From a virus: 21,383 nucleotides of DNA. The notes under the pieces are model-generated. The model ran no database searches, was not told the DNA's origin, and saw only the letters and a program-made list of their open reading frames with translations. The position numbers were made by a program, and so were the translations under genes. Positions 2,093-21,168 of the stretch are shown one piece after another. Numbering within the stretch: the stretch's first letter is position 1; each line of letters starts with the position of its first letter. The stretch is taken from the UHGV virus genome UHGV-0126007; one strand, 5' to 3'.

Positions 2093-2890
2093 TTATAGCT
2101 CCTTTAATCGAGGCGGTTCTGGTAGAGGCATCCAGTGGGTTACACCGCCAATTGGCTCATCGTCGTCGTACTCCAATGCGGCTATATAGAACCCGTCACG
2201 ACGAGAATAAGAAATCCCGGACATTACAATGCCATCCGAAACAACAATAATGTCACCCGTTTCTTTCGGCATTCGCTCACTACAGCTTATCCAACCATCC
2301 GGAGTCACCGGAAGCGAGAACGGCAGCACATCTCTGTGAACAAGTTTTTGCTGTGACAGGTTATCCAGAACTTTCTGTACTGCTGCATCACCGAATACAC
2401 CAAGCGCATCTGCCATAACTCCTACAACCTGATAAGCCTCAGCGCATACCGTGGATAAACCATCCGGAATTACCGGAGAGTTGCCGGGTTCTTTAATGTG
2501 CAAGCGAGGCTCACCATCTTTTGGTTCAGGCCACTGGCGCTCCATGTTGATCTTCAATTTATCTTCCATAGCAGCGGTAATTTCAGCATCGCTGATGCCA
2601 GCACGGCGCTGTGCATCCCACAACAGGAAATGCATATCAGCCCACTCGCTGAGATCGTCTGGTTCGGCTGCGGCTTCCAGAGCCTCTTTTGAGAGGTGTT
2701 TCAGTGGACCAATGGGGCCAACGCAGCCAAATGTGGAGTCAGACCATTTGGCATGCTCGTGGCGAATCAGTTCGCGTTCCAGTGATGCCAGTGCAATTCG
2801 TGCCAGTTCCATTTGTTCGCCACGAGTAAGCCCGTTTTCAAGCGGATTTTTAATGAACAATTCAATACGTTCTTTGGTAATAGTGGTCAT
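2093..2890 (-). CDS. Lambdoid accessory protein: MazG-like dNTP pyrophosphohydrolase-type region (DUF550-like) plus C-terminal DUF551-like domain
   Basis: Segment LSEWADMHFLLWDAQRRAGISDAEITAAMEDKLKINMERQW resembles the MazG-type NTP-PPase helix pair; C-terminus PDGWISCSERMPKE...VTHWMPLPEPP resembles DUF551 proteins common in lambdoid prophages. Family assignment from memory. Confidence 0.45.
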   Translation of the reverse strand: MTTITKERIELFIKNPLENGLTRGEQMELARIALASLERELIRHEHAKWSDSTFGCVGPIGPLKHLSKEALEAAAEPDDLSEWADMHFLLWDAQRRAGISDAEITAAMEDKLKINMERQWPEPKDGEPRLHIKEPGNSPVIPDGLSTVCAEAYQVVGVMADALGVFGDAAVQKVLDNLSQQKLVHRDVLPFSLPVTPDGWISCSERMPKETGDIIVVSDGIVMSGISYSRRDGFYIAALEYDDDEPIGGVTHWMPLPEPPRLKEL

Positions 2891-2900
2891 TTGTTAGTCC

Positions 2901-3698
2901 TTAAACTGCTAGTTGCAATTGCATTTCAAAGCGGTCGCGTTGTTCACAATACGCAAGAGAACCAGGGCTATTGTGTGCCTCAATCCGTTCTACCATTAAT
3001 GCTGCGCGTGTCTCTTTACTTGCAGGTGCATAAGCCCCAGACCAGGCTTTATCAATACCGATGTTTCGAGCGACGTTCGTACTATCTGCGCTGGCTAAGG
3101 GTAATTTTGTGAATATCAGCGGATTTAACATGCGCAATCCATGTAGTTTCGTAACCGGCTGACCATGCCCATCAACAATGTGACGAATCAGGTCTTTCAT
3201 TCTGGCTACCGCAAGAGTTGGGCGCTTTACGTCATAGTCGCCACAACTACCGATAGCCACTCGCGGAAACTCATTGCACAAATGAATAAATCGCGCGTCA
3301 CTTTCATTCATGTGCCACACTGGAACGCCAGCTAGTTTTCCGTGAGGCCACTCATTCAGAAGCGCATCATTTTCCTCCTCTCCGCCATCAATAATATCCG
3401 GGATAATGGCAAAATCGAATCCTGGGTGATTCTTCCAGCGAGCAACAAACTCGTAGTAATCGCTCCAGTCGATTTTGTTTTTGCCAGCTGCTTTCCAGGC
3501 GGTGAATGCACCGTTGTCCAGCGCGAACGACTGACAGTATTCAGCCGCGAGATTGATCTGGCCTGAATGCGCAAAACTGATAAACGCATGTCGCCCTTTC
3601 CATGCTCTCATTGCGCACGTATCAGGAGTAATAGGCCCACCGTGGTAGTGAATCATCTCACTCTCCTTTGATGCGAATGCCAGTAGCGCGGATTGCAT
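2901..3698 (-). CDS. TGT-fold protein (tRNA-guanine transglycosylase superfamily); candidate DpdA-like DNA 7-deazaguanine transglycosylase
   Basis: 265-aa ORF with FALDNGAF (compare TGT substrate-pocket motif DSGGFQ) and ADSTNVARNIG (compare TGT DCVLPTRSGRNG around the catalytic Asp). Sits in the accessory region of the PL operon. Confidence 0.4.
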   Translation of the reverse strand: MQSALLAFASKESEMIHYHGGPITPDTCAMRAWKGRHAFISFAHSGQINLAAEYCQSFALDNGAFTAWKAAGKNKIDWSDYYEFVARWKNHPGFDFAIIPDIIDGGEEENDALLNEWPHGKLAGVPVWHMNESDARFIHLCNEFPRVAIGSCGDYDVKRPTLAVARMKDLIRHIVDGHGQPVTKLHGLRMLNPLIFTKLPLASADSTNVARNIGIDKAWSGAYAPASKETRAALMVERIEAHNSPGSLAYCEQRDRFEMQLQLAV

Positions 3699-4065
3699 CG
3701 ATGACTTCAGAAACTTTGTATGCCATTACCGTTTGGTAATCATCGTGAAAATCTGTTCGATGAAGCATGCTGCTACGTTCCGGGAGCAGTATTTCCCGCG
3801 CTTCCAGTTCTGCAATGCGCTTTTTTGCTGCTTCCAGTTCATCCAGTAATTCCAGCACGGTAGCCGGATTAGCCTTGGCAACAAAATCCCGGACTGGCTT
3901 ACAATCAATCTCCGCAATGGGTTGATACGATGTGTAGCCATGCTGTCTTGTATAACTACCGTGACGAATAACGAAAAAATCACCATTTATTTTTTTAGCC
4001 TGCCACTTATCTTCACCGGCTTTCTCTGCCGCTTCACGCAGTGCCTGAGAGTTAATTTCGCTCAC
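3658..4065 (-). CDS. Ead/Ea22-like family protein (coiled-coil), 135 aa
   Basis: Contains ANPATVLELLDELEAAKKRIAELEA; the same motif (ANPATVLALLDELEAKDQRIAVL) occurs in the plus-strand paralogue at 12474-12887. 3' end overlaps the next ORF. Confidence 0.5.
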   Translation of the reverse strand: MSEINSQALREAAEKAGEDKWQAKKINGDFFVIRHGSYTRQHGYTSYQPIAEIDCKPVRDFVAKANPATVLELLDELEAAKKRIAELEAREILLPERSSMLHRTDFHDDYQTVMAYKVSEVIDAIRATGIRIKGE

Positions 4066-4283
4066 TTCGAACCTCTCTGTTTACTGATAAGCTCCAGATC
4101 CTCCTGGCAACTTGCACAAGTCCGACAACCCTGAACGACCAGGCGTCTTCGTTCATCTATCGGATCGCCACACTCACAACAATGAGTGGCAGATACAGTC
4201 TGGTAGTTCAGACGACGCATTTTTATTGCTGTGTTGCGCTGTAATTCTTCAATTTCTGATGCTGAATCAATGATGTCTGCCAT
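4062..4283 (-). CDS. TraR/DksA-family C4 zinc-finger protein, 73 aa
   Basis: Four Cys in two pairs (CCECGDPI ... CRTCASC) at the C-terminus after a short helical N-terminus; typical small TraR-like phage protein. Confidence 0.55.
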   Translation of the reverse strand: MADIIDSASEIEELQRNTAIKMRRLNYQTVSATHCCECGDPIDERRRLVVQGCRTCASCQEDLELISKQRGSK

Positions 4284-4381
4284 CTTCCATTAATCCCTGA
4301 ATTGTTGGTTAATACGCTTGAGGGTGAATGCGAATAATAAAAAAGGAGCCTGTAGCTCCCTGATGATTTTGCTTTTCATGT

Positions 4382-4663
4382 TCATCGTTCCTTAAAGACG
4401 CCGTTTAACATGCCGATTGCCAGGCTTAAATGAGTCGGTGTGAATCCCATCAGCGTTACCGTTTCGCGGTGCTTCTTCAGTACGCTACGGCAAATGTCAT
4501 CGACGTTTTTATCCGGAAACTGCTGTCTGGCTTTTTTGATTTCAGAATTAGCCTGACGGGCAATGCTGCGAAGGGCGTTTTCCTGCTGAGGTGTCATTGA
4601 ACAAGTCCCATGTCGGCAAGCATAAGCACACAGAATATGAAGCCCGCTGCCAGAAAAATGCAT
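4382..4663 (-). CDS. Hypothetical protein (likely starts at internal Met, MTPQQENALRSIARQ...)
   Basis: ORF on the leftward early transcript between the TraR-like gene and exo; no recognisable family. Confidence 0.4.
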   Translation of the reverse strand: MHFSGSGLHILCAYACRHGTCSMTPQQENALRSIARQANSEIKKARQQFPDKNVDDICRSVLKKHRETVTLMGFTPTHLSLAIGMLNGVFKER

Positions 4664-4673
4664 TCAGTGGTTG

Positions 4674-5027
4674 TCATACCTGGTCTCTCTCATCTGCTTC
4701 TGCTTTCGCCACCATCATTTCCAGCTTTTGTGAAAGGGATGCGGCTAACGTGTGAAATTCTTCGTCTGTTTCTACTGGTATTGGCACAAACCTGACTCCA
4801 ATTTGAGCGAGGCTATGTGCCATCTCGATACTCGTTCTTAACTCAACGGGAGATGCTTTGTGCATACAGCCCCCCCATTTATTATTTATCTCCTCAGCCA
4901 GCCGCTGTGCTTTCAGGGGATTTCGGATTACAGAAAGGCCGGGAAATACCCAGCCTCGCTTTGTAACGGAGTAGACGAAAGTGATTGCGCCTACCCGGAT
5001 ATTATCGTGAGGATGCGTCATCGCCAT
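4674..5027 (-). CDS. Hypothetical protein, 117 aa
   Basis: ORF immediately downstream of exo on the minus strand, overlapping the exo 3' end by about 10 nt; no recognisable family. Confidence 0.45.
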
Positions 5028-5698
5028 TGCTCCCCAAATACAAAACCAATTTCAGCCAGTGCCTCGTCCATTTTTTCGATGAACTCCGGCACCATCTCGT
5101 CAAAACTCGCCATGTACTTTTCATTCCGCTCAATCACGACATAATGCAGGCCTTCACGCTTCATGCGCGGGTCATAGTTGGCAAAGTACCAGGCATCTTT
5201 TCGCGTCACCCACATGCTGTACTGCACCTGGGCCATGTAAGCCGATTTTATTGCCTCGAAACCACCGAGCCGGAATTTCATGAAATCCCGGGAGGTAAAC
5301 GGGCATTTCAGTTCAAGGCCGTTGCCGTCACTGCATAAACCATCGGGAGAGCAGGCGGTGCGCATATTTTCGTCGCGATAGATGATCGGGGATTCAGTAA
5401 TATTCACGCCGGAAGTGAATTCAAACAGGGTTCTGGCGTCGTTCTCGTACTGTTTTCCCCAGGCCAGCGCCTTAGCATTAACTTCCGGAGCCACACCGGT
5501 GCAAACCTCAGCCAGCAGGGTGTGGAAGTAGGACATTTTCATGTCAGGCCACTTCTTTCCTGAGCGGGGCTTTGCTATCACGTTGTGAACTTCTGAAGCG
5601 GTGATGACGCCGAGCCGTAATTTGTGCCATGCATCATCCCCCTGTTCGACAGCTCTCACGTCGATCCCGGTACGCTGCAGGATAATGTCCGGTGTCAT
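5018..5698 (-). CDS. exo: Lambda exonuclease (Red-alpha), 226 aa
   Basis: [65 protein letters not shown]...[11 protein letters not shown] matches lambda Exo in sequence and length; start overlaps bet stop. Confidence 0.96.
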
Positions 5699-6480
5699 GC
5701 TGCCACCTTCTGCTCAGTGGCTTTCTGTTTCAGGAATCCAAGAGCTTTCACTGCTTCGGCCTGTGTCAGTTCTGACGATGCGCGAATGTCGCGGCGAAAT
5801 ATCTGGGAACAGAGCGGCAATAAGTCGTCATCCCATGTTTTATCCAGGGCGATCAGCAGAGTGTTAATCTCCTGCATGGTTTCATCGTTAACCGGAGTGA
5901 TGTCGCGTTCTGGCTGACGTTCTGCAGTGTATGCAGTATTTTCGACAATGCGCTCGGCTTCATCCTTGTCATAGATACCAGCAAATCCGAAGGCCAGACG
6001 GGCACACTGAATCATGGCTTTATGCCGTAACATCCGTTTGGGATGCGACTGCCACGGCCCCGTGATTTCTCTGCCTTCGCGAGTTTTGAATGGTTCGCGG
6101 CGGCATTCATCCATCCATTCGGTAACGCAGATCGGATGATTACGGTCCTTGCGGTAAATCCGGCATGTACATGATTCATTGTCCTGCTCAAAGTCCATGC
6201 CATCAAACTGCTGGTTTTCATTGATGATGCGGGACCAGCCATCAACGCCCACCACCGGAACGATGCCGTTCTGCTTATCAGGGAAGGCGTAAATTTCTTT
6301 CGTCCACGGATTAAGGCCGTACTGGTTGGCGACGATCAACAATGCGATGAACTGCGCATCGCTGGCATCACCTTTAAATGCCGTCTGACGAAGAGTGGTG
6401 ATCAGTTCCTGTGGGTCGACAGAATCCATGCCGACACGTTCAGCCAGCTTCCCAGCCAGCGTTGCGAGTGCAGTACTCAT
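5695..6480 (-). CDS. bet: Lambda Bet (Red-beta single-strand annealing protein), 261 aa
   Basis: [66 protein letters not shown]... matches lambda Bet. Confidence 0.96.
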
Positions 6481-12250: not shown

Positions 12251-12477
12251 GCAACATCGACAAACCAATGACAAACCGTGAACTGGTGGATGCCGCCATT
12301 GAATTGGCCGGAGAGTTTTATGCGATGCAGGGCTATTCGCATCGTCCTGGCTTCAAGTATTGGCAATCTCCGCACCCGCATGAGCGCCTGTGCTTTGAAA
12401 TGGCTTGCGTGGCATTCGAAACCATTCGCGGCTCAGATGTAATGGACGCCGTATCTGAGTTGGAGGATGAAGAATGA
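12247..12477 (+). CDS. Hypothetical protein, 76 aa (starts MSNIDK, as does the next gene)
   Basis: Translationally coupled ORF (ATGA overlaps at both ends); shares the N-terminal MSNIDK with the downstream Ead/Ea22-like ORF. Confidence 0.45.
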   Translation: MSNIDKPMTNRELVDAAIELAGEFYAMQGYSHRPGFKYWQSPHPHERLCFEMACVAFETIRGSDVMDAVSELEDEE

Positions 12478-12887
12478 GCAACATCGACAAACGCGCATTA
12501 CGTGAAATCGCTGAGGCAGCAGTTGGTGCGCATGAGCGCCTTAGTGTTATGCCGCCTGATGACATTTTCGATATCTCACTGGCAGAAGGAACTCAGCTTG
12601 ATGCAGATATCACTGCCTTGAACGCGCTGAACTCCGCAGCCAACCCAGCCACAGTGCTGGCGCTGCTGGATGAGCTGGAAGCCAAAGACCAGAGGATTGC
12701 TGTGCTGACCGAATCGCTCAAGCAGACGGTTTCAGGATACAAATCCTGCCTGCGTACCGGACATGAGCGCATTCTTGACCTTGGCGGTGACTGTGACGCG
12801 CCAGAAGTGATGATTGCAGGCAATCCTGACATTCAGCAGGCGCAGAAGCTGATCGCCGCCGCATCCGGTAAAGGAGAGGCATCATGA
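12474..12887 (+). CDS. Ead/Ea22-like family protein, 137 aa (paralogue of 3658-4065)
   Basis: Contains SAANPATVLALLDELEAKDQRIAVLTESL, matching the motif in the minus-strand ORF at 3658-4065. Confidence 0.5.
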   Translation: MSNIDKRALREIAEAAVGAHERLSVMPPDDIFDISLAEGTQLDADITALNALNSAANPATVLALLDELEAKDQRIAVLTESLKQTVSGYKSCLRTGHERILDLGGDCDAPEVMIAGNPDIQQAQKLIAAASGKGEAS

Positions 12888-16744: not shown

Positions 16745-17827
16745 TTAGAACTGGTAAACCATACCTACAGCAACGATATCATCGGTAGCAACGCCAGATG
16801 CTTTCGTGAAATCGCTCTTATCAATCAGGTTGATTTTGTAGTCAACAAAAGTGGACATATTTTTGTTGAAGTAATAGGTTGCACCTACATCAACATATTC
16901 AACCAGGTCCTGATCACCCCAAACACCCAAGTCTTTTCCTTTAGAATGCAGGTAAGCAACGGATGGACGCAGGCCGAAGTCGAACTGATATTGTGCAACA
17001 GCTTCGAAGTTTTGTGCTTTGTTGGCAATATGGTTATTACCAAAAACAGTCATGTTCTGGGTTTCAGAATAGGTGGTGGCCAGATAGATGTTGTTCGCAT
17101 CATATTTCAGACCAGCTGCCCATACTTCAGCATTTTGACCAGAAGCATTCAGACCGTTGTTACCGTAGATAACCTGATTATTAGTGCGATCAGATTTAGC
17201 ATAGGTTGCACCCACGCCGAATCCTTCATACTCATAAGTAGTTGAGAAACCGAAACCATCGCCATTAGCTTCAGTTACTTCATTTCGGTCATTTTTGCCC
17301 TGATACTGAGCTGCAAAGTTCAGGCCATCAACCAGACCAAAGAAGTCGTTGTTACGATAAGTTGCAACACCTGTGGTGCGACCAGTCATGAATACATCTG
17401 TTTGGGTCCAGGTATCGCCACCGAATTCTGGCAGAACGTCAGTCCACGCACCGATGTCGTATGCTACACCGTAGTTACGGCCGTAATCGATTGAGCCGTA
17501 GTCACCGAATTTCAGGCCTGCAAATGCAAGACGGGTTTTGTCTTTGGAGGAACCTTGAGATTCAGCGCGGTTGCCTTTGAATTCATATTCCCACTGACCG
17601 AAACCAGTCAGTTGATCGTTGATTTGGGTTTCACCTTTGAAGCCAAGACGGGCATAAGTAGTATCACCATCATCTGCATCATTAGAGGAGAAGTAGTGCT
17701 TAGCATTAACTTTCCCGTACAGATCCAGCTTGTTACTGTCTTTATTATAAATTTCAGCTGCCTGAGCAGACATCGCCATCAGTACTGATGCAGCTACAGC
17801 AGAAATTGCCACTGTTAATTTTTTCAT
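16745..17827 (-). CDS. nmpC: Phage-borne general porin of the OmpC/OmpF family (NmpC / Lc type), 360 aa, apparently intact
   Basis: Signal peptide [23 protein letters not shown] then [17 protein letters not shown]...; typical porin beta-strand repeats; C-terminal aromatic (F); same position and orientation as nmpC between quuD and essD in DLP12. Confidence 0.85.
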
Positions 17828-19573: not shown

Positions 19574-19710
19574 AATCTTAACTACAATATGATTCATTTT
19601 GATGATTGTTTCATAAGGAACAGTGAAGTAAGATCTAAGAGGAGTTAAATTTTATACAGTATAATCATAATATTGCAGCAAGGTGGTTATAATTGAAAGA
19701 ATATTTAGAT

Positions 19711-21168
19711 ATGAATACATCTCATGTAAGAGTTGTTACTCATATGTGTGGGTTCCTGGTTTGGCTCTATAGTCTTTCAATGTTGCCACCAATGGTTGTA
19801 GCATTGTTTTATAAAGAAAAAAGCCTGTTCGTTTTCTTTATAACTTTCGTTATATTTTTTTGCATTGGTGGCGGAGCGTGGTATACAACTAAGAAATCTG
19901 GCATTCAATTACGTACCCGTGATGGGTTTATTATAATTGTAATGTTTTGGATTTTGTTTTCTGTTATTAGTGCATTCCCTTTATGGATTGACTCAGAACT
20001 TAATTTAACGTTCATTGATGCTCTGTTTGAAGGGGTTTCTGGAATAACAACAACAGGAGCAACTGTAATTGATGATGTTAGTTCATTACCTCGGGCATAT
20101 TTGTACTATCGGTCACAGTTAAATTTTATAGGTGGTTTAGGAGTTATTGTTCTGGCGGTTGCTGTATTGCCATTATTGGGTATTGGTGGTGCAAAGCTTT
20201 ATCAGTCAGAAATGCCGGGGCCATTTAAGGATGACAAACTCACTCCCCGCCTGGCCGATACGTCACGGACACTGTGGATAACTTATTCTTTATTAGGTAT
20301 TGCTTGTATTGTCTGTTATAGACTTGCAGGAATGCCTTTGTTTGATGCTATTTGTCACGGGATTTCCACAGTTTCGCTTGGTGGTTTCTCAACTCATAGC
20401 GAGAGTATCGGATATTTTAATAACTATTTGGTTGAGCTGGTGGCTGGTTCTTTTTCCCTGCTATCGGCTTTCAACTTCACTCTTTGGTATATTGTTATTA
20501 GCAGGAAAACGATAAAACCTTTAATCAGAGATATTGAACTTCGTTTCTTTCTGTTAATAGCCTTAGGGGTGATCATTGTTACCTCTTTCCAGGTCTGGCA
20601 TATAGGTATGTATGACTTGCATGGAAGTTTTATTCATTCGTTTTTTCTTGCCAGCTCCATGCTCACTGATAATGGTTTAGCTACGCAGGATTATGCAAGT
20701 TGGCCCACGCACACGATAGTGTTTTTGCTGTTGTCAAGTTTCTTTGGGGGATGTATAGGTTCAACTTGTGGTGGAATTAAGTCACTTCGATTTCTTATAC
20801 TTTTCAAACAAAGCAAACACGAGATAAATCAGCTTTCTCATCCCAGAGCGTTGTTGAGTGTAAATGTAGGAGGGAAGATAGTTACAGATCGTGTAATGAG
20901 GTCTGTATGGAGTTTCTTTTTTCTTTATACTCTCTTCACGGTGTTTTTTATACTGGTGTTAAATGGTATGGGATATGATTTTCTTACATCATTTGCAACA
21001 GTGGCTGCATGTATTAATAATATGGGATTAGGTTTTGGGGCTACTGCATCGTCATTCGGAGTGCTTAATGACATTGCAAAATGTTTAATGTGCATAGCTA
21101 TGATTCTTGGTCGCCTTGAAATTTATCCTGTTATTATATTGTTTTCAGGTTTTTTTTGGCGCTCCTAA
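19711..21168 (+). CDS. trkG: TrkG/TrkH-family potassium uptake membrane protein, about 485 aa (moron downstream of lysis cassette)
   Basis: MNTSHVRVVTHMCGFLVWLYSLSMLPPMVVALFYKE... matches E. coli TrkG (a Rac prophage gene) from recall; multiple TM segments; very AT-rich. An alternative TTG start at 19693 has a better-placed SD (AGGTGG). Confidence 0.9.
   Translation: MNTSHVRVVTHMCGFLVWLYSLSMLPPMVVALFYKEKSLFVFFITFVIFFCIGGGAWYTTKKSGIQLRTRDGFIIIVMFWILFSVISAFPLWIDSELNLTFIDALFEGVSGITTTGATVIDDVSSLPRAYLYYRSQLNFIGGLGVIVLAVAVLPLLGIGGAKLYQSEMPGPFKDDKLTPRLADTSRTLWITYSLLGIACIVCYRLAGMPLFDAICHGISTVSLGGFSTHSESIGYFNNYLVELVAGSFSLLSAFNFTLWYIVISRKTIKPLIRDIELRFFLLIALGVIIVTSFQVWHIGMYDLHGSFIHSFFLASSMLTDNGLATQDYASWPTHTIVFLLLSSFFGGCIGSTCGGIKSLRFLILFKQSKHEINQLSHPRALLSVNVGGKIVTDRVMRSVWSFFFLYTLFTVFFILVLNGMGYDFLTSFATVAACINNMGLGFGATASSFGVLNDIAKCLMCIAMILGRLEIYPVIILFSGFFWRS

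Follow-up and report, generated by a model that had tools for sequence, protein, structure and literature searches.

Results

A DpdA-like gene in the left part of a lambdoid prophage

The stretch of DNA analyzed here (the window, 21,383 nucleotides of the UHGV virus genome UHGV-0126007) represents the left and central part of an Escherichia coli lambdoid prophage, which is inserted beside ybhC in the lambda attachment region and is present at 100% identity in three complete genomes (strains 50EVAW, QDFD216 and MIN9). Its genes are arranged in the order int-xis ... exo-bet-gam-kil, cI/cro, O/P, nin region, Q, lysis genes and the start of the terminase region. Two adjacent genes on the minus strand, located between Ea22-like/DksA-like genes and ea8.5-xis-int, are the subject of this study. 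In the initial annotation, they had been interpreted as a candidate DNA modification module, in which a gene for a protein with the fold of tRNA-guanine transglycosylases (TGT) and a resemblance to the phage enzyme DpdA is situated next to a MazG-like gene.

Both mechanically determined open reading frames (ORFs), 2901-3698 and 2093-2890 on the minus strand, are real and comprise 265 amino acids each. The first contains both LDNGAF and ASADSTNVARNIG, the two motifs on which the comparison with TGT had been based; the second motif was also given as SADSTNVARNIG. While this ORF stands, its full length does not correspond to the gene, whose start is most likely Met15 (2901-3656, 251 amino acids). 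The respective ATG (3656-3654) is preceded six nucleotides upstream by AGGAG (3667-3663) and lies one base past the stop codon of the upstream Ea22-like gene. Nearly all close homologues have about 251 amino acids and begin with MIHYHGG, and the PGAP coding sequence consists of the same 756 nucleotides.

2901-3656, minus strand: DpdA-like gene, 251 amino acids, homologue of the singleton phage DNA-guanine transglycosylase
3657-3698, minus strand: 14-codon extension of the mechanical ORF, overlapping the end of the Ea22-like gene; probably untranslated

Relationship of the protein to phage DpdA

The DpdA-like protein matched PHROG 887 ('queuine tRNA-ribosyltransferase') with an E value of 5.8e-102. 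An exhaustive HMMER search yielded 784 representative clusters at E<=1e-3, belonging to a family that spans Proteobacteria, Acidobacteria and Actinobacteria. Fifty-two diverse representatives, 33-54% identical to the protein, were aligned (alignment A1; residue numbers refer to the 251-amino acid form). Five residues proved to be invariant, D47, H172, S189, D191 and S192, and G173, adjoining H172, is conserved in at least 90% of the sequences. The two motifs are thus above chance. In another alignment (A3), comprising the window protein, those of phages SPN3UB and 7-11, relatives linked to Vut or QueC/E and the DpdA of phage 9g, D47, F51, H172 and D191 are all invariant.

The family profile derived from A1 was compared with the validated DpdA of phage 9g, resulting in an hhalign probability of 98.5% (E 2.4e-15, 162 columns). 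D47 was paired with the aspartate of the 9g motif LDSGAF, H172 with H196 and D191 with D215, so that both catalytic aspartates, whose alignment the initial annotation had named as a check, indeed coincide. The distance between the histidine and the nucleophilic aspartate amounts to 19 in both proteins. H196 of 9g is the histidine that has been used as the DpdA signature (PMC6884629). F51 is the stacking phenylalanine four residues after D47, and by motif D47 and F51 correspond to D95 and F99 of bacterial DpdA. In the latter enzyme, D95 (with F99) acts as general acid/base beside H181, which with G182 forms the signature His-Gly pair, and the nucleophile D256; guanine is no longer exchanged when D95 or D256 is mutated (PMC10164549).

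3516-3518, minus strand: codon of D47 (LDNGAF), predicted general acid/base; invariant in A1 and A3, aligned with the aspartate of 9g DpdA LDSGAF
3141-3143, minus strand: codon of H172 (KLHGLR), DpdA signature histidine; invariant, aligned with H196 of 9g
3084-3086, minus strand: codon of D191 (SADSTN), predicted catalytic nucleophile; invariant, aligned with D215 of 9g

The AlphaFold2 (AF2) model of the protein is a TIM barrel with a predicted local distance difference test (pLDDT) value of 85 and a predicted template modelling score (pTM) of 0.84. A structure search in BFVD, a collection of predicted viral structures, gave 25 matches at E<=1e-3, and all of those bearing a name are phage 'queuine/queuosine tRNA-ribosyltransferases', among them proteins of Dinoroseobacter phage R5C and Mycobacterium phage Bella96, which are both contained in the DpdA catalogue of 2019. 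The TGT-fold, DpdA-like identity proposed at the outset is therefore corroborated by PHROG 887, the profile match to 9g DpdA, the TIM barrel model and the BFVD matches.

On the other hand, there are data that speak against this assignment. Of the five cysteines in the protein, not one is conserved, and it lacks the zinc site that TGT and bacterial DpdA possess. The counterpart of D130 of bacterial DpdA is ambiguous, since D87 (IPD) is conserved in at least 90% of the sequences, yet hhalign pairs the aspartate of 9g with D90. A comparison of the family profile with the single E. coli Tgt sequence did not result in a match (hhalign probability 0.65%), and searches of the PDB sequences by phmmer and with the hidden Markov model of the 52 sequences produced only chance coiled-coil matches. 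Matches were likewise missing in Pfam (E<=0.1), NCBIfam and PADLOC. The latter three blanks are not evidence against DpdA, because the validated 9g DpdA has no Pfam match either and reaches the PADLOC DpdA model only with an E value of 0.02. In the PDB, 9g DpdA likewise had no match. From the sequence comparisons and the model, we conclude that the protein is a zinc-less member of the DpdA family, belonging to the phage 'DpdA-only' clade and remote from canonical TGT.

Genes for 7-deazaguanine metabolism near related genes

In agreement with the initial annotation, no precursor pathway is encoded nearby, and the enzyme, if active, would have to rely on the host. Within the 21-kb window, neither queC, queD, queE or folE nor a YhhQ-type gene was detected by phmmer with phage 9g and Flyfo queries (E<=1) or in the PGAP table. 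A host bearing the identical prophage possesses queA and tgt.

Related loci were searched for with the closer alignment A2. At the species level, 78 loci (38-90% identical to the DpdA-like protein) were sampled from one-genome-per-species collections. In 14 of them, one being that of an Erwinia orthologue with 86% identity, the DpdA-like gene starts precisely where a gene for Vut_1, a queuosine-precursor transporter of the YhhQ type, stops. The homologue of the Flyfo siphovirus (45% identical) also has a transporter gene directly upstream. Genes for QueE and/or QueC are located at a distance of up to 5 kb in four of the 78 loci, and at one of these (L133) QueE and QueC both exceed the NCBIfam cut-offs. 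A locus of Paraburkholderia sp. HD33-4 (L135, 5001-10474) contains, besides a DpdA of this clade, a 9g-type DpdA clustered with QueC, FolE, QueD and QueE at a distance of about 1.2 kb. The two DpdA types may have different roles in one natural system. The linkage to Vut_1 and to QueC/QueE ties the clade to 7-deazaguanine bases, independently of homology. This linkage to precursor supply is present at the family level and absent in the window itself.

These Vut_1 genes encode small proteins (about 160 amino acids in the phage and Erwinia copies; examples are L082, L089 and L149), which align with the Pfam model solely over its C-terminal half and remain below the NCBIfam cut-off for queuosine-precursor transporters. 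They may represent a truncated or diverged transporter type. At one of these loci (L089, Erwinia sp. S63, 2173-5753), a fusion of a ParB helix-turn-helix domain with PF04447, the short Vut_1-like gene and a DpdA-like gene with 86% identity lie on one strand.

Mosaic structure of the neighbouring gene

The adjacent gene is one uninterrupted ORF with several segments.

2093-2890, minus strand: EaA-type mosaic gene, 265 amino acids, composed of a constant N-terminal module, PF04447, a linker and DUF551
2777-2890, minus strand: N-terminal module of 38 residues, common to many alternative downstream genes; kept in 27 of 80 IMG/VR loci
2480-2767, minus strand: PF04447, dATP/dGTP pyrophosphohydrolase (DUF550, MazG-like), residues 42-137, E 1.1e-41
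2111-2296, minus strand: DUF551 tail (PF04448), residues 199-260, E 7.3e-14, 52.8 bits against a cut-off of 22

The PF04447 match is full-length (profile positions 1-96 of 97) and reaches 141.4 bits at a cut-off of 23. A MazG-like nucleoside triphosphate pyrophosphohydrolase segment followed by a DUF551-like tail, as initially described, is hence recovered with both Pfam models, and by its sequence the product is a predicted MazG-like dATP/dGTP pyrophosphohydrolase domain fused to DUF551. The activity of the PF04447/DUF550 family is described in PMC12884076 and PMC8342488; hydrolysis of dATP/dGTP is known only for the DUF550 protein of the Z-genome phage SH-Ab 15497 (cited in PMC12884076 and PMC8342488). 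A Z-genome context of the domain was considered and rejected as PurZ, DatZ and DpoZ are not annotated in the identical prophage. PGAP splits 2093-2890 into a 234-amino acid 'dATP/dGTP pyrophosphohydrolase domain-containing protein' and a 40-codon 'DUF550 pseudogene' fragment. The uninterrupted ORF does not support a pseudogene, and the split is apparently an artefact caused by the mosaic N-terminal module.

Beside DpdA-like genes that are 98-100% identical, the downstream gene retains its first 38 residues (MTTITKERIELFIKNPLENGLTRGEQMELARIALASLE) and usually the DUF551 tail (…VTPDGWISCSERMP…HWMPLPEPP), while its middle is exchanged for unrelated segments, resulting in proteins of 122-454 amino acids. 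Downstream genes of the cassette type, starting just past the stop codon of the DpdA-like gene, were found at the loci L003, L009-L011, L013, L015, L022 and L023. The Eaa-type downstream gene of SPN3UB lacks a detectable DUF550 domain. Domain shuffling inside one phage gene position is seldom as evident as in this slot.

Co-occurrence of the two genes

Among 5,426 complete E. coli genomes, 204 contain the DpdA-like gene and 512 this DUF550 allele. The two are adjacent in 138 genomes, where both are more than 99% identical, and the pairing thus reflects linkage by descent in one recently spread block. In IMG/VR loci whose DpdA-like protein is 98-100% identical, DUF550 was detected at up to 6 kb in 13 of 32 cases; at 86-94% identity, just three of 48 loci had it within this distance. 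At the species level, DUF550 occurred at up to 5 kb in three of the 78 loci, one of which is the Erwinia sp. S63 locus mentioned above. Co-occurrence beyond recent common descent was not found, and a two-gene module, as suggested in the initial annotation, is not supported. In our view, the neighbour is thus an independent EaA-type mosaic gene of the ordinary kind and not a partner of the DpdA-like enzyme.

Position in the early-left operon

The remaining features concern the region upstream of the two genes.

3658-4065, minus strand: Ead/Ea22-like gene (PF13935, E 2.6e-17), directly upstream, with its stop one base before the start of the DpdA-like gene
4343-4361, minus strand: terminator-like hairpin (consensus scan only), upstream of the DksA-like, Ea22 and DpdA-like genes in the leftward operon
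7539-7516, minus strand: terminator-like hairpin (consensus scan), also upstream of both genes

The C-terminus of an Ea22-like protein is encoded ahead of the DpdA-like gene in 40 of the 80 IMG/VR loci. Solely from the orientation of the two genes and the synteny with lambda, we infer that both are probably transcribed from pL. Due to the two hairpins upstream (7539-7516 and 4361-4343), N-type antitermination would be needed for a pL transcript to reach them. The terminator scan detected 22 sites in comparison to 8.4 +/- 2.7 for shuffled sequence, an excess that is consistent with an antitermination-dependent leftward transcript. Further terminator-like hairpins in the leftward operon are situated on the minus strand at 1432-1451 and 1628-1678.

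Some other genes of the window may be mentioned. In addition to the Ead/Ea22-like gene in the pL operon, there is a second one in the nin region (12474-12887, plus strand). An ORF of 117 amino acids (4674-5027, minus strand) combines DUF1317 (residues 3-56) and DUF1382 (residues 55-114); in the identical sequence, PGAP annotated a frameshifted DUF1317 pseudogene and a separate DUF1382 gene, which points to an apparent fusion or a frameshift. Moreover, PGAP annotated a gene for an OmpC-type porin between the Q antiterminator and the lysis genes (16745-17827, minus strand) and the potassium-transporter gene trkG after the lysis cassette (19693-21168, plus strand). The porin and trkG genes resemble the cargo genes of the DLP12 and Rac prophages.

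Discussion

The DpdA-like gene of the prophage has been correctly re-identified as a member of a family that was already catalogued, and it does not represent a new system. Hutinet et al. listed 76 phages possessing only DpdA in 2019, including SPN3UB, SfI, HK106, BTP1 and SEN1 (PMC6884629, Supplementary Data 1), and stated that the gamma-proteobacterial singletons cluster apart and may have diverged in function. The presence of such a gene in a lambda-type temperate phage, which had been regarded as out of the ordinary, is for this reason not novel. In all of the 204 E. coli genomes, the gene is annotated as 'hypothetical protein', unlike the catalogued singletons, and this is still its only name in RefSeq. 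What has been added here is the context evidence (YhhQ-type transporters, QueC/QueE) tying the clade to 7-deazaguanine chemistry, and the removal of the MazG-like protein as a partner.

On the basis of sequence, model and analogy, it is reasonably probable that the gene encodes a DpdA-only enzyme which is expressed from pL and uses preQ0 of the host to introduce 7-deazaguanine at a low level into phage DNA, the neighbouring gene being unrelated to this activity. The product of 2901-3656 would be a small, zinc-less base-exchange enzyme with a TGT-related TIM barrel. Judging from the synteny with lambda, its gene would be transcribed together with the early-left genes upon induction. By analogy with bacterial DpdA and TGT, D191 would attack C1' of the target deoxyguanosine and D47 would protonate the leaving guanine, before a free 7-deazaguanine base resolves the putative covalent enzyme-DNA intermediate. 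Since the phage has no precursor genes, this base would be supplied by the host, which makes preQ0, and it may be preQ0 itself or a close derivative from the FolE-QueD-QueE-QueC pathway of E. coli. The outcome could be a low-level, probably motif-specific 7-deazaguanine mark on the replicated phage DNA that might blunt restriction. For 9g DpdA alone, acting in E. coli on plasmid DNA with preQ0 of the host, deoxy-preQ0 (dPreQ0) was reported at 0.03-0.3% of G, and the DNA of phage 7-11 contained 2'-deoxy-7-amido-7-deazaguanosine (dADG) at 0.02% of G (PMC6884629).

Several points weigh against this account. A literature search for DpdA studies on lambdoid or temperate phages did not find any experimental work on the lambdoid/P22-like singletons. 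In wild-type E. coli, free preQ0 is normally reduced by QueF, so that the supply of substrate may be limiting. In 68% of the E. coli carriers, the DUF550 gene lies next to the DpdA-like one, so that a coupling of the two is formally possible. Finally, the relatives that have been assayed gave little, with only a trace in 7-11 and unmodified DNA in Mycobacterium phage Orion (PMC6884629).

That the DpdA-like and MazG-like proteins act jointly, for instance by lowering the dGTP/dATP pools in favour of the replacement of G, is very unlikely in our estimation, although the two genes lie on the same strand only 10 nucleotides apart, are together in 138 of the 204 E. coli carriers and, in three Salmonella-type loci (L034, L040 and L065), a diverged DUF550 (68-75% identical) is found within about 1 kb. 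In Erwinia sp. S63, the DUF550, Vut_1 and DpdA-like genes even follow each other consecutively, and DUF550/MazZ enzymes serve a base-replacement pathway in Z-genome phages. By contrast, about 73% of the E. coli genomes with this DUF550 allele have it away from the DpdA-like gene, the E. coli pairs are more than 99% identical DNA, and DUF550 is kept in merely 3/48 loci at 86-94% identity and 3/78 at the species level. Furthermore, beside DpdA-like genes of 98-100% identity, the DUF550 segment is swapped for unrelated modules in 14 of the 27 loci retaining the N-terminal module. DpdA exchanges bases after replication (PMC10516641) and thus does not require any change of the deoxynucleoside triphosphate pools.

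It is also conceivable that the gene is a passenger of the mosaic early-left region, encoding a silent or substrate-starved enzyme without measurable effect in E. coli. The unmodified DNA of Orion would fit such a situation, as would the position of the gene in an accessory ea/b-like region with free gene exchange and its low frequency in E. coli (204 of 5,426 complete genomes). However, the catalytic residues are invariant across phyla, the host of Orion lacks preQ0 synthesis while E. coli has it (PMC6884629), and the recurrent association with genes for precursor transporters and QueC/QueE speaks for a function under selection, which makes a silent enzyme unlikely. A small probability is also assigned to an enzyme that is active on 7-deazaguanine but whose target is not bulk phage DNA, namely tRNA or a protein-linked base as for Cap10 of the cyclic oligonucleotide-based antiphage signalling system (CBASS), in the course of host takeover or counter-defence. 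Nothing in the analysis favours a tRNA or protein target; a Cap9/QueC-like or CD-NTase partner is missing in the window, the profile homology is to the DNA-acting DpdA, and the Paraburkholderia relative lies in one cluster with a DpdA of the 9g type and a complete set of preQ0 genes. It is quite doubtful that the enterobacterial DpdA-only enzymes place 7-deazaguanines made or imported by the host not as bulk camouflage but onto specific DNA sites for regulation or self-recognition, onto tRNA or onto a Cap10-like protein-linked base. If this was true, lambdoid phages would exert a so far undescribed host-takeover or counter-defence activity at induction.

Returning to the insertion of host-made 7-deazaguanine by a lone DpdA, such an activity would imply that common temperate coliphages, including Shiga toxin (Stx)-converting ones, bear a DNA mark. 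This mark could affect restriction, methylome calls based on sequencing, and phage engineering. The question of singleton DpdA activity was already posed by Hutinet et al. in 2019.

Comparison with known systems

The neighbouring gene may be compared with the MazZ-type DUF550 genes of Z-genome phages such as SH-Ab 15497, since its residues 42-137 cover the whole PF04447 model. Unlike these phages, the prophage does not possess PurZ, DatZ and DpoZ, and its DUF550 is fused to DUF551 and an EaA-type N-terminal module. It is an ordinary lambdoid 'EaA/DUF550' gene, as present in the 512 complete E. coli genomes. As regards the DpdA-like protein, the Cap9 and CD-NTase partners typical of CBASS Cap10 are not encoded in the window. 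Canonical TGT (PF01702) is much longer than the window protein, which has neither the zinc subdomain nor a Pfam match, whose family profile does not match E. coli Tgt, and which does not belong to this group. To the bacterial Dpd system it cannot be assigned either, because the partners DpdB (ATPase) and DpdC are absent from the prophage and a PADLOC DpdA match was not obtained; the identity to the DpdA of this system (PDB 7ui4) is 14%, and the window protein lacks the structural zinc site and the DpdA-specific insertions.

The similarity to phage enzymes is closer. DpdA of 9g (DpdA1), a validated preQ0 DNA insertase, shares LD(N/S)GAF, VWH/CFH, K(L/V)HG and S(A/C)DS(T/S) with the window protein, despite an identity of about 19-22% and a length of 317 amino acids caused by N- and C-terminal extensions. 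The DpdA of phage 7-11 is 35% identical and the group 3 singleton DpdA of SPN3UB (YP_007011024) 92%. With these gamma-proteobacterial singletons (SPN3UB, SfI, HK106, BTP1, SEN1 and 7-11), the window protein has in common the size of about 251 amino acids, the motifs, the lack of que genes and temperate lambdoid or P22-like carriers. A difference exists in the position of the gene, which is the pL (early-left) operon in the window and the pR/nin region in SPN3UB, where the orthologue (L083, 4001-4756) is part of the rightward operon and follows the replication genes. Hence, the gene behaves as a cassette that relocates from one early operon to another, accompanied by an Eaa-type gene downstream of it.

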